Below, piece by piece: positions 6,589 through 30,730 of a stretch of 40,525 bases of DNA. The stretch is from IMG/VR virus record IMGVR_UViG_2734482565_000012. One strand, 5' to 3'. Position 1 is the first letter of the stretch; the number at the start of each line of letters is the position of its first letter. The notes beneath the pieces were generated by a model, which saw only the letters and a program-made list of their open reading frames with translations, ran no database searches and was not told the origin of the DNA. A program made the position numbers and the translations under genes. Source of the DNA: a virus. Its lineage: Duplodnaviria; Heunggongvirae; Uroviricota; Caudoviricetes.

Positions 6589-7551
6589 TCAACTAATCGC
6601 CTCAGCACTGGCTTTTGCGATCACGGCAGCCGGGGAATTTTTTTTTCTGGTTATCGTAGGTGCTTCATCTGCTGCGGTAATGCTCAATTGAACCTGGATA
6701 ATGTCGCTATTACCCCCATCAGGCCATTCACCTGACACCTGAACCTTCGGGAAACTGAAAGTGTATGCCCCCTCTCCATTCGAAAGCGTGAAGCTGAACG
6801 GAACTGTTTCTCCAGTCAGTGTTTTACTCCAGATTTCCCACGCGGCTTTAGACCATGAAAGCGTCACCGTACCGGACGGTGTAAAAGTAGTCGGAATATT
6901 TGCTCCTGCATAAGGCGAGCCAGTCCCGATACAACGCTGTGTCTGGAGTTTGTTATCGAACTGAATATCAAAACTGTCGATACAAAAACCGTTACCTCCG
7001 GCAACACCATTCAGGCTTACTGCTGAAACCTCCTTAAACGAATAACGTAGCTTTCCTGCACTATCCACAGGTTCGCCTTTGATAAAATTCGTATCATCGG
7101 CCTTTGATTCCCAGTCCAGTCCGGCAAAGGTTACGGTCGCTGTAATATCGCCGTCGTTAGGGATCTGCATTTTCCATGAGCCAACCTGCGCTCCTCTGAC
7201 GACAGAGGCAATTCCGACATCGGACGCATAGGTCGCCAGAGAAAATGTTATTCGCTCATTCCCCATTGTCAGAGAATCGCCTGACCATTCCGCGCCGAAA
7301 CAGGATGCAAGAAAATCATCATGTTGACCCCAGCGAAATTTGGTACCAACATCACCGCCGACATCCACAGTGCCAGGCGTCGCCCCCTGAGCCATCCGGG
7401 AGCCACCAATCTCATTATTTTCGCCTTTATTCTGGGTGGGTTTTACTCCCCAGCTTGTGCGTTTTAATAAACTCCAGTCACCACTTGCTGGCGTAGTGCC
7501 TGCAACCGTCTCCCGGATAAATGCCGAGATAACCTTTGCACCTGAACTCAC
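6589..7551 (-). CDS. major tail (tube) protein with C-terminal extension
   Basis: 320 aa, beta-rich and G/S/T-rich, immediately upstream of the chaperone gene; position and composition fit a lambda V-like tube protein. Confidence 0.75.
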   Translation of the reverse strand: MSSGAKVISAFIRETVAGTTPASGDWSLLKRTSWGVKPTQNKGENNEIGGSRMAQGATPGTVDVGGDVGTKFRWGQHDDFLASCFGAEWSGDSLTMGNERITFSLATYASDVGIASVVRGAQVGSWKMQIPNDGDITATVTFAGLDWESKADDTNFIKGEPVDSAGKLRYSFKEVSAVSLNGVAGGNGFCIDSFDIQFDNKLQTQRCIGTGSPYAGANIPTTFTPSGTVTLSWSKAAWEIWSKTLTGETVPFSFTLSNGEGAYTFSFPKVQVSGEWPDGGNSDIIQVQLSITAADEAPTITRKKNSPAAVIAKASAEAIS

Positions 7552-7577
7552 AGGAGCCTCCTATGTCATTAATTGCG

Positions 7578-7970
7578 CTAGAGCGCGCGATATGGAATTT
7601 GAAGATTAAGCTGGAACCAGCCATTCTTTTCGCCAACGGCTATTGAGGAAACAGCCTGGTAACTGAGACGATCGTCATCCTGAAACTCAAACAGTTCCCG
7701 CAATTTATCGGCTGTCTCAGTAATGAGTTTTGAACCAGAACCTGCGGGGACAAATAACTGAATAATGATTATCCCCGTGCGATAAACAACCGGCCCCGCG
7801 CCAATTTCATTAACTCCAGCCTGCCCGGGAATATTACTTAACCGCGCCCAGATTAACTTACCGGAAGGATCGAACGTTGGCCCGTTCGGATACAATACGT
7901 CTTTTCCATCAATAATCGTCTGTGCCGTCATTCTGGAAATAACCGTATTTCTGATTTCAGTAAACTTCAT
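7578..7970 (-). CDS. tail terminator protein (gpU-like)
   Basis: 130 aa, lies between the tail-completion and major tail genes; size and position match lambda U. Confidence 0.6.
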   Translation of the reverse strand: MKFTEIRNTVISRMTAQTIIDGKDVLYPNGPTFDPSGKLIWARLSNIPGQAGVNEIGAGPVVYRTGIIIIQLFVPAGSGSKLITETADKLRELFEFQDDDRLSYQAVSSIAVGEKNGWFQLNLQIPYRAL

Positions 7971-8347
7971 TTGTAAGCCTGTAAAACACCATGAAAAGCG
8001 TTGGCATACACGCCAGTTGGCGCTTGTTGTGAATGACCGTTTTCAAGAGCCTCTGCATAAGGAAGGTTATTCTGGATATAAATAACCCCGTAATTTGCAG
8101 CTTTCGAAATAACCCCGATCCCACGCTGAACAGCAATCGTACCGTTCGGATCCACGTTATCAGATATACCAAAATCGGGATGCTGTAACGACACCAGGTT
8201 GTTATTTCTGAAACGTCCGGTATCAACCGGAGCAGCAATATCAATAGCAGTAAGAATCTGCATAGCGATGTAGCGAATCTTCAGCCCTACATCTTCCTCA
8301 ATCATCCCGGCAAATATTGACGGTTCTATATCCCATGCCTTTGCCAT
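7967..8347 (-). CDS. tail completion / HK97 gp10-family protein
   Basis: 126 aa; 4-nt overlap with downstream gene; position in head-tail joining block. Confidence 0.5.
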   Translation of the reverse strand: MAKAWDIEPSIFAGMIEEDVGLKIRYIAMQILTAIDIAAPVDTGRFRNNNLVSLQHPDFGISDNVDPNGTIAVQRGIGVISKAANYGVIYIQNNLPYAEALENGHSQQAPTGVYANAFHGVLQAYK

Positions 8348-8731
8348 TTACGCTCTCCTTAACTGGATAGAGTAAACTGATGCGGAAGGATCTACACTTG
8401 CTGTAATTACCTCGTATCGTTGTAACTGCCTTGATACAGGATCATAAATCTCAATAATATGGTCGACAGCTGGTTTATCCGTAACCTCGCATACCAGAGC
8501 GGTTAATTTAAGGTCACCATGCAAAATATTAATCCCATCAATTCTGCCCAGCTTATAACGTGTCAACACGCCTCGCCCGGTATAGATTGCGGTTGATTCG
8601 CCGCCAGTTTCCGTCACAGGATCCCAGTGCCGGTGCGTAACGTAAGAACCAGAAAAATCACTCACGGCGTCCGCTAAATCCTCATCAAAAGCAGCGGCAA
8701 CCTCTGACTGAATCTCTTCACGAAGCCCCAT
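8348..8731 (-). CDS. head-tail adaptor / head closure protein
   Basis: 127 aa; synteny between connector and tail completion genes; start overlaps upstream stop. Confidence 0.5.
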   Translation of the reverse strand: MGLREEIQSEVAAAFDEDLADAVSDFSGSYVTHRHWDPVTETGGESTAIYTGRGVLTRYKLGRIDGINILHGDLKLTALVCEVTDKPAVDHIIEIYDPVSRQLQRYEVITASVDPSASVYSIQLRRA

Positions 8732-9126
8732 TATCCCCCCCTCACAACCCTGACTTGTGAGCGACTAAGTCCGTACGGTTTCAGCAGTGCTATCGCAAGC
8801 TGTAAATCGGGTTCAAGCAATGCAGTGCTGTTTGCTGGCAACTCAGAAAATGATTTCGATACACTGACCCCGTCAGCCGACACGGCTTTACTGATAACAA
8901 CGCCAGAATCATTTTTCTGCTGAAACAACTTACCGAATGAGGCAATTCTGGCTGCATATGCTCCCGCAAGTTTTACCTCTTCCGGAATACGGGATGGGTT
9001 AATTTTCAGGTTGAAGCCATTAAGCCAGGCATTAGCCATTAAAACAGCTTTATTTTTAGCGTTCTCACTCGTCCAGGCGTTCCCAAACGCATTATCAACG
9101 TCATCACAGGTCACGTAAGTGATCAT
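8731..9126 (-). CDS. head-tail connector protein
   Basis: 131 aa, first gene after the capsid block; product assigned by position only. Confidence 0.45.
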   Translation of the reverse strand: MITYVTCDDVDNAFGNAWTSENAKNKAVLMANAWLNGFNLKINPSRIPEEVKLAGAYAARIASFGKLFQQKNDSGVVISKAVSADGVSVSKSFSELPANSTALLEPDLQLAIALLKPYGLSRSQVRVVRGG

Positions 9127-10586: not shown

Positions 10587-11351
10587 TTAATCAACGATTG
10601 TGATACCGTCTTTCAATGCGTTTTGCTTACCTGCAACATCCAGTGCATCAAAAGCAGAGCGTTTCATCGTTTTCTGACCAATATCATGCTGTGTCGGACG
10701 GGAGCCGCCGCCATTGTTGCCACTGGCTTTCAGGATGTAGTCTTTCTGAGGGTAATTTTCGACAAGGAACTCCAGCGCCTCATCAAACTGCGCCAGTTCG
10801 CCAGGCTTCGCGCGGGAATAAATTTTGTTGCCGGAAGCGTCATAAGCAACGATCCTCCCTTCTTCCACTTTGAATGCCTGCCCGAAGCGGGCTTGTAATA
10901 AATCTGCCGGGATCGCAATTTTATCGGCAATATATTTTGAACCCGCAAAACTACCGCCAATCATAGAATCGTAAAGCTGCTTCTCCAGCATCTGAGAGCG
11001 TTGCTTTTCTTCATCTAATTGCTGCTGAAAATTTTTCGTAATTTCTGCCTTAACCTGGTCAACCTGTCCCGCATCGAGCAGCTTTTTCTGGTCGATTTTT
11101 GACAGCATTTCCAGTGCCTCGATCGCCTTCTTCGGGTCTTCGATAGCGGCAAACTTAGCCAGTTTTTCCTCTGCAGCTTCTTTAGCCAGGCGATGATTTT
11201 TTGCCTCGCCATTAAGCTCTGTAATTTTTTTTGTCGCCAGCGGTGCATCGAAGCCAATTTCTTTACCATCGTCGTGCACATAAACTGGCAGGCCAGCAGT
11301 ATCAATTTCTGCGTATTGTTTTCCGTTAATCTCGACCGTTTTCAGTTTCAT
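10587..11351 (-). CDS. scaffolding protein
   Basis: Highly charged alpha-helical protein (EEKQRSQMLEKQLYD, AKEAAEEKLAKFAAIEDPKKAIEALE) directly upstream of capsid; start placed at MKLKTVEING (ORF-track start 11423 is an alternative). Confidence 0.6.
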   Translation of the reverse strand: MKLKTVEINGKQYAEIDTAGLPVYVHDDGKEIGFDAPLATKKITELNGEAKNHRLAKEAAEEKLAKFAAIEDPKKAIEALEMLSKIDQKKLLDAGQVDQVKAEITKNFQQQLDEEKQRSQMLEKQLYDSMIGGSFAGSKYIADKIAIPADLLQARFGQAFKVEEGRIVAYDASGNKIYSRAKPGELAQFDEALEFLVENYPQKDYILKASGNNGGGSRPTQHDIGQKTMKRSAFDALDVAGKQNALKDGITIVD

Positions 11352-11455
11352 ATTAGTACCTGGTTTAAGTCTTCCGACAGTTACGCTGCTCACCATCCGG
11401 ATCGCAGCAATAAAAAAGGCCACCCGAAGGTAGCCTGTTGTAATAAATGATTTAT

Positions 11456-12571
11456 TTAAATCCCTGCTTTTCTGAATACCTGTGCATCACGCTCACGGAG
11501 CTGCTTCAGCGTCAGCCATTCGCCTTTATCGGTGTAAAATTCATCTGGCGACATACCACCATCCCGAATCAGCTTTGCTCGGCTTTCCCCCACAATCTGT
11601 TTTTGTCTGGTGTAAGGCTGACGCAAAAACCATTCCCTGTAGGTTGTATCTCCGGCCACCACGCCATCCATGCTGGCCCGCTCAGCCGGGGAAATATCGC
11701 GAACATCAATACCCAGTTCCTTCGCTGATTTCAGAATGAACGTTTCCGTTGAGCGGCAGCAGAAATGAATTTTTCCCGGCCCCTGCAAATAAGGCACGCT
11801 GTGACCTACAGGTTTATTATTCAGCGTATATTTGAGGCGATCCCTGATTCGACATTGTGGCGTAGTACGATTATCAAGCGTTGATAACCATTGCTTACCC
11901 TTAATCAAATCATTATTCGCGCTGGCAAAACTCTCACGGGCAGTAGCAGCAAGATGTCCAACCGCTGTTTTTGCAATGCTGGCCGCATTAGCCCGGCTCA
12001 TCTGCAATGCACCATCCTGAAATCCCTTACTGACATGTCCCCGAATTTTTCTTGCGATCTGCTCATTGGTATCCCCCAGCAAAAAACCCTGACGCACTGT
12101 ATTTGTTATGCGTCTGAGCCGATCCGCCTCAAGATCTGAGGCCCACTCACTGAGCAGTCGTCCCTGGAATGGTCGCGCCATTGCAGCGGCATAAAGTGCA
12201 TCAGGAGAGATACCAACCAGAGGGTGAACATCAGCAACAAAATCAGGTAGCATAGAATCAAACAGACTTAACTGATAACCAGCCTCATAAATTGCCAGCT
12301 CGTTCAGCTCTCCGGAGAGACTGGTAAACATGCTGTTAATAGCAGTGCGGTTAACCTCTCTGACGCTCGCCAGAAGTGACTCCAGGCGCTTAACGGTAAA
12401 ACTACCTGGATCGAGGCTGTCCAGTGCTATCAGCAGGCGAGCAGTAAGTTCCGCATCGCTGTCATTCAGTATTTTCACCATTCTGGCAGCCACGCCAGTG
12501 CTATAGCGGGATATCCAGACTGCATGAGCAATTGATTCATCACGCAGCCGTTCATTCACGGTTTGCATCAT
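11456..12571 (-). CDS. head morphogenesis protein (phage Mu gpF / SPP1 gp7 family)
   Basis: 371 aa directly downstream of the portal gene with overlapping start and stop; typical minor head protein position. Confidence 0.75.
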   Translation of the reverse strand: MMQTVNERLRDESIAHAVWISRYSTGVAARMVKILNDSDAELTARLLIALDSLDPGSFTVKRLESLLASVREVNRTAINSMFTSLSGELNELAIYEAGYQLSLFDSMLPDFVADVHPLVGISPDALYAAAMARPFQGRLLSEWASDLEADRLRRITNTVRQGFLLGDTNEQIARKIRGHVSKGFQDGALQMSRANAASIAKTAVGHLAATARESFASANNDLIKGKQWLSTLDNRTTPQCRIRDRLKYTLNNKPVGHSVPYLQGPGKIHFCCRSTETFILKSAKELGIDVRDISPAERASMDGVVAGDTTYREWFLRQPYTRQKQIVGESRAKLIRDGGMSPDEFYTDKGEWLTLKQLRERDAQVFRKAGI

Positions 12572-23960: not shown

Positions 23961-24247
23961 AAATGACCTTTCTTTCTCCAGATTTCTTGTGTGCGAAAAA
24001 CCCCTTCAGCATGCATCAGGCGCAATTCTTCTTTGGTGTAATCGCTGGTTTTTACCCGCCCGTCGATTAGATCGTGGCATGAGCTACAGGCTATCGCCGC
24101 CTGCATATCATGTGGTTTTGTCGCTGTTCCGCACGTCCCCGCCAGCCTGTAATGCGCCAGCACAGAGGTTTCGGGATTGTGATTGCAGTAGCCAGGGATT
24201 CTGATCTGGCACATCTGGCCTTTAGCCGCTTTACGTAAATTCACCAT
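23957..24247 (-). CDS. DUF1364-type nin-region protein (YbcO-like, Cys-rich putative metal-binding)
   Basis: 96 aa; CQIRIPGYCNHNPETSVLAH..TCGTATKP..IACSSCHDLIDGR matches the YbcO-like pattern of lambdoid prophages as recalled. Confidence 0.6.
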   Translation of the reverse strand: MVNLRKAAKGQMCQIRIPGYCNHNPETSVLAHYRLAGTCGTATKPHDMQAAIACSSCHDLIDGRVKTSDYTKEELRLMHAEGVFRTQEIWRKKGHL

Positions 24248-24846
24248 TACGCAAACTCCAGTAGTTGTGCGGCCACATTTTCAACTTCCTCCTGAGAGGA
24301 GAATTTACGGAACAGAATCCAGTTCCACAGCACATTCAGTACAGATTTATAAACCTGCTGAAACTCGACTTCGTCCATATTCGCAAAAGCGATGGATTTT
24401 GCCCGACGCCCACGGCTACCGTCCGGATAAATATGCTCGGTGTAAAATCCGGCCTGAATGGTTACCCACTCGCGGAAAGCCTCAAACGACTTTAGCAACG
24501 CCGTATCCCGGGTTCTACGAGTCGCAACGGTGTTAAGGTATTGCTCTGCGGCATCACTCAGGGCTGGCGTGTGTTCCCGACCAACTGATTCGCACAGGTA
24601 ATCAACGAAACCAGACAGCAGTTCTCGTTCGCGAGGCGTGATCGCCCCACCGACCGGAGTCCAGTAATCGAATCCCAGTTGCAGGAGTTTGAAAAAACGC
24701 TTGTGGAATGCGTAGTTACGCACACGCTTAAAGTCTGCGTGTATCCACTCACCTATTTTGATTTGATGCAGAAAATCGCAACTCTCCGGCGTCGCCGGGA
24801 GAAGTAAACCAGAAGAGGTTTGTTTGACCAGTTGTATATGCGCCAT
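24247..24846 (-). CDS. conserved lambdoid nin-region protein (DUF1367-like), function unknown
   Basis: 199 aa; stop overlaps the downstream start; family name from memory only. Confidence 0.45.
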   Translation of the reverse strand: MAHIQLVKQTSSGLLLPATPESCDFLHQIKIGEWIHADFKRVRNYAFHKRFFKLLQLGFDYWTPVGGAITPRERELLSGFVDYLCESVGREHTPALSDAAEQYLNTVATRRTRDTALLKSFEAFREWVTIQAGFYTEHIYPDGSRGRRAKSIAFANMDEVEFQQVYKSVLNVLWNWILFRKFSSQEEVENVAAQLLEFA

Positions 24847-25126
24847 TTCTCAATCTCTCGATGGCGCAGCGCAGCAGATGCCAGTTGTTCAGGCTGACGA
24901 ATAAAGTATAAATAAACTGGCTATGGTGTAAAGCCCCACATAGCATGAACAAACACTACATATCAAATAGCTGGTACAAGGATAGAAATACGACACTTAT
25001 TATTAAAAACGATTAGATAAATTACATTTTAATGTTATGCAAAAGTTCTTTTTTATCATAACATTTCAATAAAAGCATTACAGATGCAATCATCCCGTCA
25101 TCATCAATTATTTAAGGTGGTTAAAC

Positions 25127-25213
25127 ATGGAAAATAACAAGTTCGCACATCTCGCTCCTTTTTTATCCGTAATCCTTTTCGCTTGTTGTTTTATATGGGC
25201 ATTATTTTTATAA
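25127..25213 (+). CDS. 28-codon hydrophobic small ORF (candidate small membrane protein or type I toxin-like peptide)
   Basis: AAGGTGG SD 6 nt upstream of ATG; MENNKFAHLAPFLSVILFACCFIWALFL*; single predicted TM; sits in an approximately 800-bp AT-rich tract with no other ORFs. Confidence 0.3.
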   Translation: MENNKFAHLAPFLSVILFACCFIWALFL

Positions 25214-25604
25214 AGTAGCCACATGATAAGTTGCTGGAATCATATTTCCCACTCAAGTCATTAACATTTGATAAGATATATCTAAAAGGACGCCTTTACA
25301 TTATTTATGCGTATATAATTTATTTATATACACAGTAAAGGTATCCTGGGAAAATATTTATCGTTAAAAAATACATCATAAATAATTAAGCTGAAATTTC
25401 AGAACACAACTAATACACACAATAAGGTTCAGTAACAGTAATCTATGTGGACTACATCGAGATTTTTTGATTAAACTTTAATAACTTATTCCTAACACAC
25501 AGAATGCATAAACTAAAAGTAAAACAAATAGTTATACGAAAAACAACCATATTTATTCTATCTTCTCCTCTAATCAACATATCAATTATGTGTTTCATAA
25601 CAGC

Positions 25605-25644
25605 TTGACATAACCCTCCAAAAGATGCATTTTTAATGCATGTT
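25605..25644 (+). promoter_or_regulatory. candidate sigma70 -35 (TTGACA) plus NsrR-type operator upstream of the yeaR-like gene
   Basis: TTGACA at 25605-25610; AAGATGCATTT-T-TAATGCATGTT (25622-25644) is an imperfect 11-1-11 inverted repeat matching the NsrR box AAGATGCATTT-N-AAATGCATCTT as recalled. Confidence 0.4.
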
Positions 25645-25659
25645 TTGGAGGAGGTGGTT

Positions 25660-25998
25660 ATGACACACAAGAGAATTCCTAAAGATTGGGTAATCAAACG
25701 CTCAACTCCGTTCTTCACAAAAGAGAACGTACCTTCAGCGTTATTAACACATCATAATACAGCAGCAGGTGTTTTTGGGCAGTTGTGCGTAATGGAAGGC
25801 ACTGTAACATATTATGGTTTTACTGATGAGAATGCTACTGAACCGGAGATAAAAGTAGTCATTAATGCTGGCGCTTTTGCAACAAGCCCACCACAATACT
25901 GGCACCGTGTTGAACTAAGCGATGATGCTCAGTTTAATATTAACTTTTGGGTCGCTCCAGACTTTTCGGGCGAAAAAGTCTATAGCACCAAAAAATAG
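25660..25998 (+). CDS. YeaR-like protein (DUF1971)
   Basis: 112 aa from MTHKRIPKDW with GGAGGAGG SD; RSTPFFTKENVPSALL..HNTAAGVFGQLCVMEGTVTYYGF..EPE..INAGAFATSPPQYWHRVE..FNINFWVAP parallels E. coli YeaR as recalled. Confidence 0.8.
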   Translation: MTHKRIPKDWVIKRSTPFFTKENVPSALLTHHNTAAGVFGQLCVMEGTVTYYGFTDENATEPEIKVVINAGAFATSPPQYWHRVELSDDAQFNINFWVAPDFSGEKVYSTKK

Positions 25999-26027
25999 AT
26001 GATCATATTAAAAATGCTTTAACAGTC

Positions 26028-26065
26028 AGACCCGGCAGGGCTATCCCCGACGGGTCTCATTTTTG
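26028..26065 (+). terminator. intrinsic terminator after the yeaR-like gene
   Basis: agacccg...cgggtct stem followed by CAUUUUUG. Confidence 0.5.
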
Positions 26066-26618
26066 TAAATATATTGGTTCTACATTGACAGGAGACTTCA
26101 ACCATAAGAAGTAATCTGAATACTTGAGCAATAAATTTACTTAAGATTAATGAGCGCACCTTGCCGGACAAAGATAAACCAAGGTAACACCTTTTTTCTA
26201 GCCAGTATGTAATCAATCAGAAAGCCGCTCCATAAGAACAACAGCAAGACAATAAATTGCCATTACAGCCGCAATAGCCAGCGCACATTTGAGAACCAGC
26301 ACGACAACCCCCTGTATTAGACGCACACCAGTCCTGATAAATATGAGGCTGTCTCGTCAGTGATTCAATACAACTATTGGGTATAGTTTCTGTGATTTTA
26401 TTCTGTAGAAATGGAACACAACAACCAGTCACCACCAGCACTTCCTTAAATGCTCTAAGTCAGAAACAAGCCAACATTTTAGTCCGCTTTGAGCGATCTG
26501 CAGACATTGCTAGCAGCCTTCTGTGTGAATTCTCAGGGAGCAGGTCGGCATAGCATCACGTTGAGGCTCTTACCCTACTTGTTCACACCAACCCTAACTC
26601 CACAGACTGATTCATAAA

Positions 26619-27620
26619 TTAGTAATCTGCGTGTTTCGCACTTTTCAGAAATGCTTTCATATTTTCATTAGGTCGCTCAATTTCGAAGTTACTTCCATAT
26701 AACTCTTGTAATTTTGGCCATAACTTACTTAATAACCCTCTCCTGCGATAAAATGGATGTATCCAAACGGTAGATAGGTACGGAGAATTTGCATTTGAAT
26801 TGTTTATTGTGACCAGCCCAACTAAACATTGTCGATAACCACTATTATCCATTGATTGTATTTCTTCGACGAATGGATACGCGATTACATCAGTCCAACC
26901 ATGATCGGTTGTATCCCATTGCATTCCGTCATGACATTCCTTCGACTGATAGCGGCGTAAAGCTACACACGCGAGCTTTTGCCAATCTGGAGAATTAATT
27001 GTGATCTCTTCATCGTATGACGCGCCTATTGGAGCGGGTATTGGTCTGATTAATCCAGCATGGCATTCATCATAGAACTTCATGTTTCCCTCAGAAACGT
27101 TGTGTACGTTGGGTTGCTCCATGTGTGCGCCATTCAAAAATAGCTCTGATAGTAGTGTATCTACACTGTAATCTTTATTGATTATTGTCGGCTTAGAGTT
27201 TTTCTTATTAAGGCCGCGAGTAACGATTTTTTGATCAATGTTAACAACATGGAATAATCCGTCGGGGAGGCTAGCGAACCACGATGGGGCATCGGACCAG
27301 AATAGCATGCCTTTTGTACTTCTTAAGAGTTTAATTAAGTTAATACAAGCTTCTTCACTAGTCTTGCCGTTGATGCGAAGTATGTTAGGACTAAAGTAAT
27401 ATTCATCCATATCAGGGAATGCAGCTTCGCAAAACTCCTGTACATAATTTAGCACCTGGATTCTACAGAGATCATCATAGCTGGTAATAACTAAGGGGGT
27501 ATCTTCATTACTATTATGATTATCAATAATGCAATCTATAGCGAGACTTACTGCTTTGCGTATCACTTCAGTTGAATCTAACGACTCTAAAAATTTTGTC
27601 TTTCGTGTGCGAATATCCAT
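26619..27620 (-). CDS. hypothetical protein B of AT-rich two-gene cassette (C-terminal GNAT-like motif)
   Basis: 333 aa; start 15 nt after the stop of gene A; C-terminal ..GYRQCLVGLVTIN..YLSTVWIHPFYRRRGLLSKLWPKLQEL.. resembles GNAT motif A; AT-rich codon usage; no resemblance to core lambdoid genes. Confidence 0.65.
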   Translation of the reverse strand: MDIRTRKTKFLESLDSTEVIRKAVSLAIDCIIDNHNSNEDTPLVITSYDDLCRIQVLNYVQEFCEAAFPDMDEYYFSPNILRINGKTSEEACINLIKLLRSTKGMLFWSDAPSWFASLPDGLFHVVNIDQKIVTRGLNKKNSKPTIINKDYSVDTLLSELFLNGAHMEQPNVHNVSEGNMKFYDECHAGLIRPIPAPIGASYDEEITINSPDWQKLACVALRRYQSKECHDGMQWDTTDHGWTDVIAYPFVEEIQSMDNSGYRQCLVGLVTINNSNANSPYLSTVWIHPFYRRRGLLSKLWPKLQELYGSNFEIERPNENMKAFLKSAKHADY

Positions 27621-27635
27621 GTATGACCTGCGCTA

Positions 27636-28658
27636 TTAAAATTCATGAATGAACGGTTTGTCATCTGGTTGCAAAATGGTGGTTTTATTCGTTGCTACAT
27701 TTAAACTGTTGTAGAGCATAATTGCCAGGTTCGATGCATTTTCAATCAGCGTTTCAAGATCCTGGTCTGTAATCACTACGAGGTTCCCTTCTTTATCCTT
27801 TCCACCACGATGCACTAAGTGATTTCGATTGAGGGTTGCCAATTCAATAGCTTCTATCGGACAGTCTTTTTGTACTTTTATATCGAATGTAGCTTCATAG
27901 CGGTCGATTACCTTTTTAGTGCTATGCCAGCTTGCACTGATCAAGTGTTCCTTGATTGACCTGATTAGCTCTCCCCTAATTTTCTCGATGGGTTCACCCT
28001 TGAAAGGCAACGCAGCAATATCTTTGCTTACTTTAAATTCAGTCTTACCTTTTTCTATACAATTGGCTATGTAGACATCATCTTTCTCTATAGAATTAAT
28101 GAATAGCTCAACATAAAGCGTTTCCAAAGCTGTAATAACATTCGTGTAGAGCAAACTAAGCAAGTGGTTTTTTTGCTGTTGTTCAGTTTTATCTTTTGCA
28201 AGTTTTTTTATTTTATCGATATTATCAATGAATTTTAAATACGGATTACCGGAAGACGTTACAGCGTCGTAGATATCATCATCGTACCAATCATCTATAT
28301 TATTTGAGTTTCCAGACCAGTCAAAACATTGTGTTTGTAATTCATCTACTAATTCCTCAATATACTCAGATTTAACATATTGACCGAAGATGGATTGTAG
28401 TTCTTCGCTCGCATCATACGGCCCGCCATATATGTAAGCATAGCCACCTTCTCTACTTTCATACGGACAAGCATTTGCCGGATCTTCAAAGTTTTCAAAG
28501 AACCAGTTTTTCATTACTTCGAGTTGATCTTTTTTGCTTATGTATTTTAAAGATTTTAGTGGAACTTTCTTTCCATTAACCTCGAAAACAATTTTCACGA
28601 TGTAACGCTCCCTTGTATCAATTGCGCAACTATTATACCACAGCGAAATACAGGGCAT
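27636..28658 (-). CDS. hypothetical protein A of AT-rich two-gene cassette (C-terminal HEPN-like R-x4-H motif)
   Basis: 340 aa from MPCISLWYNS with AAGGAGG SD (ORF track start 28727 is upstream of the SD); C-terminal ..AIELATLNRNHLVHRGGKD.. has RN-x3-H spacing; acidic N-terminal region. Confidence 0.65.
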   Translation of the reverse strand: MPCISLWYNSCAIDTRERYIVKIVFEVNGKKVPLKSLKYISKKDQLEVMKNWFFENFEDPANACPYESREGGYAYIYGGPYDASEELQSIFGQYVKSEYIEELVDELQTQCFDWSGNSNNIDDWYDDDIYDAVTSSGNPYLKFIDNIDKIKKLAKDKTEQQQKNHLLSLLYTNVITALETLYVELFINSIEKDDVYIANCIEKGKTEFKVSKDIAALPFKGEPIEKIRGELIRSIKEHLISASWHSTKKVIDRYEATFDIKVQKDCPIEAIELATLNRNHLVHRGGKDKEGNLVVITDQDLETLIENASNLAIMLYNSLNVATNKTTILQPDDKPFIHEF

Positions 28659-28688
28659 AACCTGCCTCCTTAAACTAACATACCATGA

Positions 28689-28712
28689 GCCAGCAATGTC
28701 CGCTATTGGCAC
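28689..28712. promoter_or_regulatory. perfect 7-bp inverted repeat immediately upstream of cassette gene A
   Basis: gtccgct-attggcacaa-agcggac about 30 nt upstream of the SD of gene A; a TTGACA hexamer lies a further about 40 nt upstream on the minus strand. Confidence 0.3.
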
Positions 28713-28796
28713 AAAGCGGACAACCACGCTAGCTCTCCCCTGTGCCAGAAAAATGTCAATTTACATATGAACTAATGCTCTTTGATCTAGTAACGT

Positions 28797-29228
28797 CTAT
28801 AAATACCGAAGATTTCCTTGATAAAATGCCAGTACACGTTTCATAACTTCACTCTTCCGGCACTCGCGACAGATTATGTTCTGACGCCTGTCATAGCGGC
28901 GTATTTCTCCGTCTGGTAATGACCAGATAAGGTCAGGATCAACCACAACCGTTTTTTTCACCTTTGCCCTGGATAGTTTTTTGCGGGCGTTTTTCCAATC
29001 CTTACGAGCCTGTTCAGACGGGAATAACCCATAGCCAGAGTTGTATACATCGCCACTGGCAACCAACTCTCTGGCAAGAATGCTCATCAGATATCTTGTC
29101 GCACCTGTCTTGGCCTCCAGTTGCCTTAACGTCTCGCGCCCACTCTGGCGTACCAACTCAACAACCTGCTCCTTAATTTTTTCACGCTCTTCCTGTGTAA
29201 AAACTTTTGCCATAAGCGCCTCCGGCAA
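28797..29228 (-). CDS. hypothetical early-region protein
   Basis: 143 aa ORF; basic; contains CRECRKSE; co-oriented with the replication operon. Confidence 0.55.
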   Translation of the reverse strand: MPEALMAKVFTQEEREKIKEQVVELVRQSGRETLRQLEAKTGATRYLMSILARELVASGDVYNSGYGLFPSEQARKDWKNARKKLSRAKVKKTVVVDPDLIWSLPDGEIRRYDRRQNIICRECRKSEVMKRVLAFYQGNLRYL

Positions 29229-30061: not shown

Positions 30062-30730
30062 TTAAAATTCACCCATCGCCNNNNNNNNNNNNNNNNNNNN
30101 NNNNNNNNNNNNNNNNNNNNNNNNNNNNNNNNNNNNNNNNNNNNNNNNNNNNNNNNNNNNNNNNNNNNNNNNNNNNNNNNNNNNNNNNNNNNNNNNNNNN
30201 NNNNNNNNNNNNNNNNNNNNNNNNNNNNNNNNNNNNNNNNNNNNNNNNNNNNNNNNNNNNNNNNNNNNNNNNNNNNNNNNNNNNNNNNNNNNNNNNNNNN
30301 NNNNNNNNNNNNNNNNNNNNNNNNNNNNNNNNNNNNNNNNNNNNNNNNNNNNNNNNNNNNNNNNNNNGATAGCTGCCGCTAAGTGGTTCTTCCCGGTACC
30401 AGGTTTTCCGCTGAACGCAAAATTTGTACACCCGGTCATCAGTTCATCAGCGATGGATTTCGCCTGACTCAACGCGTATCGCTGCGCTTCGTTCTGCACC
30501 TGGTAATTCGAAAACGAGCATTTGCGGTGCAATGGCTGGATGCCAGAGCGATTCAGAATTTTTTCCACCCGCAACTGACGATTCTGACGGTTGATCTCCT
30601 CACAACGTTTCTGGCCTTCGGAAAGTTGCCACTCGCGCCACTCCGCTACCGTCTTGAATGGCGCGGTTACATGTGACGGGGCCAGTCTGCGGATACGTTC
30701 AAGAACGTCGCCTGTCGCAATATTTTTCAT
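30062..30730 (-). CDS. ydaV: DnaC/IstB-like replication ATPase, interrupted by assembly gap
   Basis: Walker [15 protein letters not shown]; matches Rac YdaV as recalled; C-terminal part replaced by N-run. Confidence 0.8.
30081..30367. other. assembly gap (run of N)
   Basis: 287 consecutive N within the ydaV-like gene. Confidence 0.99.

Follow-up and report, generated by a model that had tools for sequence, protein, structure and literature searches.

The stretch of DNA analysed here, hereafter the window, is a 40,525-nt sequence (IMG/VR record IMGVR_UViG_2734482565_000012) from a Rac-like lambdoid prophage of Escherichia coli. Its minus strand carries a cassette of two co-oriented genes, here called A and B, which the initial annotation had picked out from the letters alone as a candidate defence module of unknown function. 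The two open reading frames and the 15 nt between them were retained in our analysis, while the start that had been assigned to A, at 28658, was replaced by a GTG at 28598. The cassette is laid out as follows.

26619..27620, minus strand: gene B, DS-33B-like (WP_000354966.1), 333 aa, with a family-specific N-domain followed by a predicted C-terminal GNAT fold; accessory gene that the published protection does not require.
27621..27635, minus strand: A–B spacer of 15 nt, constant in about two dozen paired loci.
27636..28598, minus strand: gene A, DS-33A (WP_014639476.1), 320 aa, GTG start, with a HEPN/RES-NTD1 domain followed by a HEPN domain; the defence effector.

By amino acid identity, the cassette is one that is already known as DS-33, a system that has been validated but not explained mechanistically. 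The A protein of the window was identical to DS-33A (WP_014639476.1) over 320 of 320 residues, and B matched DS-33B (WP_000354965.1) at 332 of 333 residues, the single difference being proline 289 in the window and leucine 289 in the published clone. Gene order and the 15-nt spacer were also the same as in the published DS-33 coordinates (6922–7884 and 7900–8901). DS-33 is contained in Tables S6–S8 of the DefensePredictor study (Science 2026, doi 10.1126/science.adv7924, PMC13092281; bioRxiv preprint, January 2025), and the description as ‘unknown function’ was thus outdated. Table S6 lists it under the working identifier ‘GNAT’, with the genes WP_014639476.1 and WP_000354965.1 and the entry defensive = TRUE (PMC13092281). 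Literature searches by accession or PHROG identifier yielded nothing in main texts, and the match came only from the supplementary tables. The main text of that study does not name DS-33 and gives no mechanism, genomic-context analysis or comment on the dispensable GNAT gene (PMC13092281).

In the DefensePredictor screen, each transcription unit, together with the native promoter predicted for it, was carried by E. coli MG1655 on a low-copy plasmid and challenged with 24 phages; the values in Table S7 are log10 protection in plaque assays with two replicates (PMC13092281). DS-33 was cloned from an E. coli strain of a largely ECOR set and protected MG1655 (PMC13092281), with tabulated first-screen values of 3.0 for T7, 3.5 for T3, 2.3 for Bas67 and 4.7 for Bas26 (PMC13092281). 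The wild-type system subsequently gave (replicates 1 and 2, respectively) 3.78 and 2.60 for T7, 3.30 and 2.40 for T3, 4.0 and 1.98 for Bas67, 5.0 and 5.90 for Bas26, and 0.77 and 0.08 for T5, and the strain lacking the GNAT gene (deltaGNAT) gave 4.78 and 4.30, 3.30 and 3.30, 4.0 and 3.30, 5.0 and 4.90, and 1.73 and 0.55 for the same phages (PMC13092281). Every value for deltaHEPN and for the R258A substitution lay between −0.5 and 0.8 (PMC13092281). As taken from the published tables, protection thus amounted to 10^2–10^6-fold against T7, T3, Bas67 and Bas26, with a tested clone that carries L289 (PMC13092281). Since deltaHEPN and R258A lose protection, the HEPN gene and its catalytic arginine are necessary, and since deltaGNAT is viable and protective, protection does not need the GNAT gene, and A is tolerated by cells that lack B. 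The DefensePredictor log-odds point in the same direction, at 9.45 for A and 1.08 for B (PMC13092281). The proposal of a defence module was therefore borne out, in that the same two proteins constitute a validated system whose protection depends on A and on R258. Both genes are real, but they are not an obligate pair: the published deletions and our neighbourhood analysis both show that, for the protection measured, the HEPN gene suffices and the GNAT gene can be missed.

The features assigned to protein A were as follows.

28254..28598, minus strand: HEPN/RES-NTD1 domain of A, approximately aa 1–115, predicted from PF18870 family matches and the block WFxxNFEDP...PYESREGGYxYIYGGPYDA.
27675..28244, minus strand: HEPN domain of A, approximately aa 119–308, a predicted all-helical bundle.
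27807..27827, minus strand: HEPN Rx4H catalytic motif of A, R258-N-H-L-V-H263-R264, assigned by conservation and the published R258A substitution.

The peptide LNRNHLVHRGG, which had been put forward as a HEPN motif, is present in A, its R258-x4-H263-R264 is invariant, and the published R258A variant loses protection. Across 54 family members with identities down to 26%, the invariant residues were R258, H263, R264, E159 and W224-H225, and the N-terminal WFxxNFEDP...PYESREGGYxYIYGGPYDA block was nearly invariant as well. PF18870 (HEPN_RES_NTD1) was matched by 51 of the 54 homologues (E ≤ 0.01) and PF18735 (RiboL-PSP-HEPN) by 29 (best E 7e-11), and A has the all-helical fold expected of a HEPN protein. 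A is thus a HEPN protein as judged from the invariant R258, H263 and R264 and the family-level Pfam matches. Proteins of this superfamily are typically metal-independent RNases, usually acting as dimers. The NTD1–HEPN architecture, including the MAE_28990/MAE_18760 group, has been defined computationally (Anantharaman et al. 2013, PMC3710099). Other searches were less informative: the A and B family profiles gave only chance matches to PDB sequences, NCBIfam gave nothing for either protein, and PHROGs returned only the unannotated families phrog_17908 and phrog_16994. PADLOC, one of the tools proposed for recognising the cassette, returned no meaningful match for A, B or any of the 54 A-family members. 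The HEPN/RES-NTD1 domain also occurs alone (70–130 bits, over the N-terminal third) fused to other C-terminal parts in viral contigs (L191–L207) and genomes (L062–L083), many of the genomes being alphaproteobacterial, in keeping with its description as an N-terminal module common to different effectors.

The open reading frame of A on the minus strand extends from 27636 up to 28658 or 28727, and translation almost certainly starts at GTG 28598 (320 aa) rather than at ATG 28658. This assignment, made from sequence comparison, was adopted because all A homologues begin with the residues MKIVF, PGAP annotates 320 aa from this GTG, the frame upstream of it is closed or start-less in relatives (L092–094, L098 and L101–105), and a Shine–Dalgarno sequence before it is conserved. 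The 340-aa version of A was ruled out, since its extension is not open in many relatives. Two upstream signals were placed on the minus strand.

28608..28614, minus strand: Shine–Dalgarno sequence AAGGGAG for the GTG of A, conserved.
28632..28640, minus strand: extended −10-like element TGGTATAAT, a candidate cassette promoter proposed from a pattern match.

Of the 15 relatives examined, most keep this Shine–Dalgarno sequence, in the form AAGGGAG, AAGGAGG or AAGGAAG. The strong ribosome-binding site reported upstream of ATG 28658 is accordingly not at the conserved start, as the conserved one precedes GTG 28598. The −10-like element reads TGGTAYAAT in most aligned cassette relatives, is altered in L092 and L104, and lies within the upstream stretch that is conserved among them; the pattern by itself was not above chance in the window, and it falls inside the 340-aa version of the open reading frame. 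A promoter scan found no promoter-like site upstream of A, with a total no higher than in shuffled sequences, and the combined promoter and terminator scan found no intrinsic terminator. As for the other regulatory signals suggested for A, the TTGACA hexamer is present at 28754–28759 but has no −10 partner in the promoter scan and lies outside the stretch conserved among relatives. The inverted repeat is likewise real, but is located at 28697–28722 with 8-bp arms and a 10-nt loop, not at 28689–28712 with 7-bp arms. A second 7-bp inverted repeat, TGGCACA/TGTGCCA (28707–28713 and 28741–28747), overlaps the loop of this hairpin, so that the two structures would be mutually exclusive.

Protein B was divided into two parts.

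27036..27620, minus strand: N-terminal alpha/beta domain of B, aa 1–195, of no known family.
26718..26759, minus strand: GNAT motif-A-like segment of B, H288-P-F-Y-R292-R-R-G295-L-L-S-K-L-W301, from the family alignment.

As had been suggested, B ends with a segment resembling GNAT motif A: the peptide WIHPFYRRRGLLSKLWPKL is present, and a GNAT fold is predicted for B. The score with PF00583 was 19.9 bits, just under the gathering threshold of 20.7 bits, and 17 of 45 B homologues matched this family (best E 6e-6), some of which NCBI names GNAT. In the family, the motif-A segment reads HPFYRRxGKLxxLW, and a motif-B-like PNxxMxxF is conserved. Set against the motif A pattern Q/R-x-x-G-x-G/A of the acetyl-CoA pyrophosphate loop, R292-R-R-G295-L-L of B ends in leucine; R292 never varies in the family, and several members have another residue in place of G295. 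The predicted model contains no strand after helix alpha4, so that the GNAT fold may be short at its C-terminus, with the canonical C-terminal strands missing. A BFVD structure search matched the GNAT half only, and the N-domain had no Pfam, NCBIfam or PDB match. Among 1.84 billion representative proteins, the N-domain gave only 21 hits, of which the full-length ones (approximately 330–346 aa) shared the same architecture and the rest were fragments; none of these representatives carried it in another architecture. The B family is small and gammaproteobacterial wherever an organism is named. Overall, the model indicates that B is a two-domain, GNAT-fold, acyltransferase-like protein of putative activity. 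The residue at which the window and the published clone differ, codon 289 (CCA, 26754–26756), encodes a proline that lies immediately before motif A and is conserved in at least 90% of the B family. The 61-nt stretch around this codon occurs in 209 complete E. coli genomes, each with exactly the sequence of the window, and the tested DS-33 clone may, from this conservation, carry a weakened B allele (L289).

Whether A and B form a unit was examined with the A and B family profiles, which were run over 80 loci from genomes (for A), 45 from metagenomes (for B) and 78 from viral contigs. The A–B pair was found only among close relatives (84–100% identity for A and 73–100% for B), with a spacer of almost always 15 nt, or a gap of 18 nt counting the stop codon in nearly all pairs. 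One pair is located at a chromosomal, non-prophage site between a ROK regulator and PTS genes. A occurred without B within 6 kb at 55 loci, from Acidobacteriota, Chloroflexota, cyanobacteria, Desulfobacterota, Legionella and others, where it had no recurrent neighbour and usually no tightly coupled gene; full-length A without B was also present on 15 viral contigs. The neighbours of solitary A included integrases, transposases, Peptidase_M78, Fic/SoFic, DUF4238, type I and III restriction-modification genes and PD-T7-5. B without A (39–86% identity) was found at about ten loci with enough flank to judge, beside a XamI restriction-modification pair, a resolvase, SAVED with a 2TM effector, AAA_13, T5orf172, a Tse2-like ADP-ribosyltransferase, RelA_SpoT, integrases and IS elements. 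These neighbours provide qualitative evidence for a mobile, defence-island setting. Swappable cognate partners were rejected, since all-against-all clustering of the neighbours (55 loci for A and 17 for B) found no conserved partner. From these distributions we infer that A is a widespread module of one autonomous gene and B a lineage-specific companion, which matches the published dispensability of B. One solitary B homologue (86% identity, L149) lies in what looks like a defence island, beside a 1,197-aa protein with a Walker-A-like GLSGVGKT, a GIY-YIG-like 262-aa protein, a 209-aa protein with RHAFGH (Rx4H) and IS fragments, all motifs having been read by eye; the three genes of note are at L149:3736-7329, 10909-11697 and 11898-12527.

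The location and composition of the cassette agreed with the initial description. It lies in the slot between the replication genes and the nin/Q-side genes, flanked on one side by ydaU/ydaV-like genes, DUF1627 and DUF977 and on the other by DUF1367, DUF1364 and DUF1133. The lower GC content relative to the flanks was also reproduced (0.361 for A and 0.391 for B, versus 0.48–0.50 for the neighbouring phage genes and 0.458 for the window). In near-identical annotated prophage copies, the cassette is preceded by intR/xisR, recET, kilR, sieB, ydaS/T-like genes, ydaU, ydaV, DUF1627 and DUF977, and followed by DUF1971, DUF1367, DUF1364, DUF1133, lysis genes and trkG. It was found in 205 of 5,426 complete E. 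coli genomes, where both genes are labelled ‘hypothetical protein’. No cassette was found in the deposited phage genomes of INPHARED, the sole match being to the flanking DUF977 end, and neither tRNAs nor Rfam families were found in 24000–29000. Approximately 800 nt of very low GC content (0.27–0.35) at 24847–25635, between the DUF1367 and DUF1971 genes, carry no annotated gene in the RefSeq copies. Masked runs of N occur at 647–952 and 30081–30367, the second of which breaks a ydaV/DnaC-like replication gene.

The cassette is bounded by two hairpins, at which the conservation among relatives starts and, for most of them, ends.

28697..28722, minus strand (24-nt form, 28698–28721): left boundary hairpin GTCCGCTTTGTGCCAATAGCGGAC, 8-bp arms and 10-nt loop; conservation starts here.
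26482..26505, plus strand: right boundary hairpin GTCCGCTTTGAGCGATCTGCAGAC, in the opposite orientation to the left hairpin; end of the stretch conserved in most relatives.

The left hairpin is 99 nt upstream of A and the right one 113 nt downstream of B. Both follow a 24-nt pattern, GTCCGC-N12-GCGGAC, with left-type copies reading ...TTTGTGCCA... and right-type copies ...TTTGAGCGA..., and neither has a T-run after it. None of 100 shuffled sequences contained a match to the left hairpin at up to three mismatches. The 2,240-bp unit between the hairpins (26482–28721) recurs with the same ends in at least six viral contigs. When the shared pattern was scanned in IMG/VR viral contigs, at least 120 contigs matched, and facing left-type and right-type copies were found at at least 28 places among the matches listed, bracketing at least eight cargo sizes.

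1,032 bp: one 269-aa protein with no Pfam hit.
1,490 bp: NUDIX and HAD genes.
1,731 bp: one protein containing the full 340-aa WP_022645725.1, which is DS-3.
2,240 bp: DS-33, the cassette of the window.
2,513 bp: a 484-aa protein with a D...ECK motif (read by eye).
5,303 bp: a BCCT-like transporter (read by eye), DUF2254 and a 447-aa protein without a Pfam hit.
5,916 bp: cargo including an Mrr_cat nuclease and a protein with an RNKIVH motif (read by eye).
6,763 bp: transporter, DUF2254 and ChaC-like genes, with a LysR-like regulator and an MFS-like transporter (read by eye).

DS-3 (WP_022645725.1) was also validated in the DefensePredictor paper (PMC13092281). The flanks just outside the hairpins formed 40 clusters, the main left cluster containing 59 flanks and the main right cluster 50 (among the matches listed). 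Further copies were located at L102 (134, 3183, 5447 and 6650), L149 (7817 and 11760) and L209–L327, and the hairpins occur in other contexts besides the Rac-like prophage slot. In viral contigs, B-only copies follow the same left hairpin that the window has ahead of A. Overall, the hairpin-edged slot looks like a cassette hotspot of Rac-like prophages, and the paired 24-nt hairpins (GTCCGCTTTGTGCC..., inverted GTCCGCTTTGAGCGA...) may be exchange sites at which defence systems (DS-33 and DS-3) and other cargo are swapped. In the 5,916-bp cargo, a 317-aa protein with RNKIVH (Rx4H, HEPN-like) and no Pfam hit (L230:7457-8410, minus strand) accompanies an Mrr_cat protein of the restriction-endonuclease fold (L230:6326-7162, minus strand), and, from these motifs, the two may be an uncharacterised defence pair.

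Among known systems, small GNATs on mobile elements, such as the toxins TacT, AtaT and ItaT and the anti-CRISPR AcrVA5, are used in conflicts. B differs from these in its length of 333 aa, its unique N-domain, a fold that apparently ends after helix alpha4 and the lack of an RHH antitoxin partner. The type VII HEPN-MNT system (HepT/MntA) differs in that the neighbour of A has a GNAT fold rather than being an MNT nucleotidyltransferase, and is dispensable, with cells surviving without B. Solo HEPN defence proteins encoded by prophages include HepS, from the Gifsy-1 prophage of Salmonella (Nature 2026, PMC13043305), and Tha (PMC11087260). HepS resembles A as a solo HEPN protein in a lambdoid prophage accessory slot between replication and late-regulatory genes; it acts without a partner gene and depends on its Rx4-6H motif (PMC13043305). 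However, no sequence relationship between HepS and A was detected when the A family profile was compared with PDB sequences, and HepS differs in having its motif at R100–H105 and no NTD1 domain. The trigger (tail tip protein J) and the tRNA anticodon-loop targets are established for HepS only (PMC13043305), and HepS restricts siphoviruses, whereas DS-33 is, in its tabulated data, strong against T7, T3, Bas67 and Bas26. In the DefensePredictor tables, the best of the remote HHblits matches to DS-33A is the B protein of PD-T4-2 (Vassallo et al. 2022, PMC9519451), labelled RiboL-PSP-HEPN, with a probability of 96.1 and a coverage of 0.55 that takes in the HEPN half only. None of the 54 A-family members matched the PADLOC models of PD-T4-2, and its partner genes and target phages differ. 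The HEPN/RES-NTD1–HEPN proteins of the computational survey (PMC3710099) share the NTD1–HEPN fusion, with a conflict or defence role predicted by computation alone and no mention of a GNAT partner.

We favour, with a probability of roughly 0.8, the reading that the DS-33 cassette is exchangeable cargo in an accessory slot of Rac-like prophages, with A acting as a single-protein sensor and effector and B as an accessory. The C-terminal HEPN domain of A would provide the toxic activity, most likely an RNase, and HEPN/RES-NTD1 would be its likely regulatory or sensing part. In the absence of phage, A would be kept inactive; infection by T7-like phages, and by some others, would activate it, and active A would then stop translation and phage growth, probably through abortive infection. 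B, co-inherited and presumably co-transcribed with A in Enterobacterales, is neither the effector nor an essential antitoxin, and would at most modulate A or do a separate job. This single-protein model is supported by the likeness to HepS and Tha as solo HEPN defences of prophages. Several points weigh against it. The A protein of the window scored 22.2 bits with PF18870 (E 1.9e-4), under the gathering threshold of 27.4 bits, and had no match to PF18735, and the RNase activity of A, an RNA target, abortive infection and the sensing role of NTD1 are elements that we infer. The exact 15-nt spacing persists even where identity has fallen to 84% for A and 73% for B, which argues for some functional coupling of the two genes. 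Protection by deltaGNAT was approximately 10-fold higher in several comparisons (two replicates, no statistics), and the contribution of B may have been under-estimated because the tested allele has L289 at a family-conserved proline; together, these two observations are compatible with a modulatory role for B.

An alternative is a true two-component system, in which the GNAT protein B would acylate A or the target of A and thereby restrain or tune the HEPN nuclease, in a toxin–antitoxin-like or self-immunity arrangement that might, for example, protect the lytic cycle of the prophage itself, analogous to MNT AMPylating HEPN in type VII toxin–antitoxin systems. Such a system would be in line with a spacer maintained in about two dozen paired loci, including the non-prophage ROK/PTS site, with the rise in T7 protection by 1.0 and 1.7 logs in deltaGNAT (and in T5, T3 or Bas67 protection in several comparisons), and with a tested B whose L289 beside motif A perhaps weakened it. 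Yet the deltaGNAT strain was viable and fully protective, which indicates that B is not an essential antitoxin; A is solitary at 55 diverse loci with no recurrent partner, B lacks A at about 10 loci with enough flank, the motif-A glycine G295 is not conserved, the log-odds of B are far lower than those of A (1.08 vs 9.45), and the published data comprise two replicates with no statistics. We therefore consider this arrangement unlikely. That B is an independent passenger, either a second defence gene acting on phages that the panel did not include or an acetyltransferase that counters defence or modifies the host, is possible, with odds clearly below even. Solitary B (39–86% identity) adjoins the resolvase and XamI pair and other defence-like neighbours, its B-only copies in viral contigs share the left hairpin, its two domains invariably accompany each other, within a narrow gammaproteobacterial family, and small phage-encoded GNATs are common among the structural matches. 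However, deltaHEPN, in which B is left alone, gave no protection against the five phages tested, B was scored as non-defensive by DefensePredictor, the unvarying distance to A points to co-expression more than to adjacency by chance, and its acetyltransferase role is putative. It is highly improbable that the cassette is ordinary metabolic or structural phage cargo, the scenario that the initial annotation had itself named as speaking against its proposal: the same slot does hold non-defence genes (NUDIX and HAD, the BCCT-like transporter, read by eye, with DUF2254, ChaC-like genes and others), but the published 10^2–10^6-fold protection dependent on A and R258 refutes this explanation, and no profile or structure search placed A or B in a metabolic or structural family. 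Beyond the favoured reading of A as a single-protein effector, a more speculative extension, which we hold to be rather unlikely, is that B has acyltransferase activity by which it gates or tunes the HEPN effector, a role under-estimated because the cloned allele has L289 beside the acetyl-CoA loop; the separate proposal that the hairpins act as cassette exchange sites is put at the same doubtful level.

The sequence-only reading thus correctly identified a genuine defence system together with its two domains, one that the literature already covers. The comparative evidence, which is independent of the published deletions, indicates that the HEPN gene is autonomous and the GNAT gene a lineage-specific companion, and the atypical published B allele (P289L) matters for dissecting the role of B. 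If B does act as a gate, it could dampen the HEPN effector or protect the prophage that carries the cassette when this prophage goes through its lytic cycle. More broadly, the hairpin-bounded slot, with DS-33, DS-3 and several unstudied nuclease-like cargos, provides a practical handle for finding prophage defence genes.

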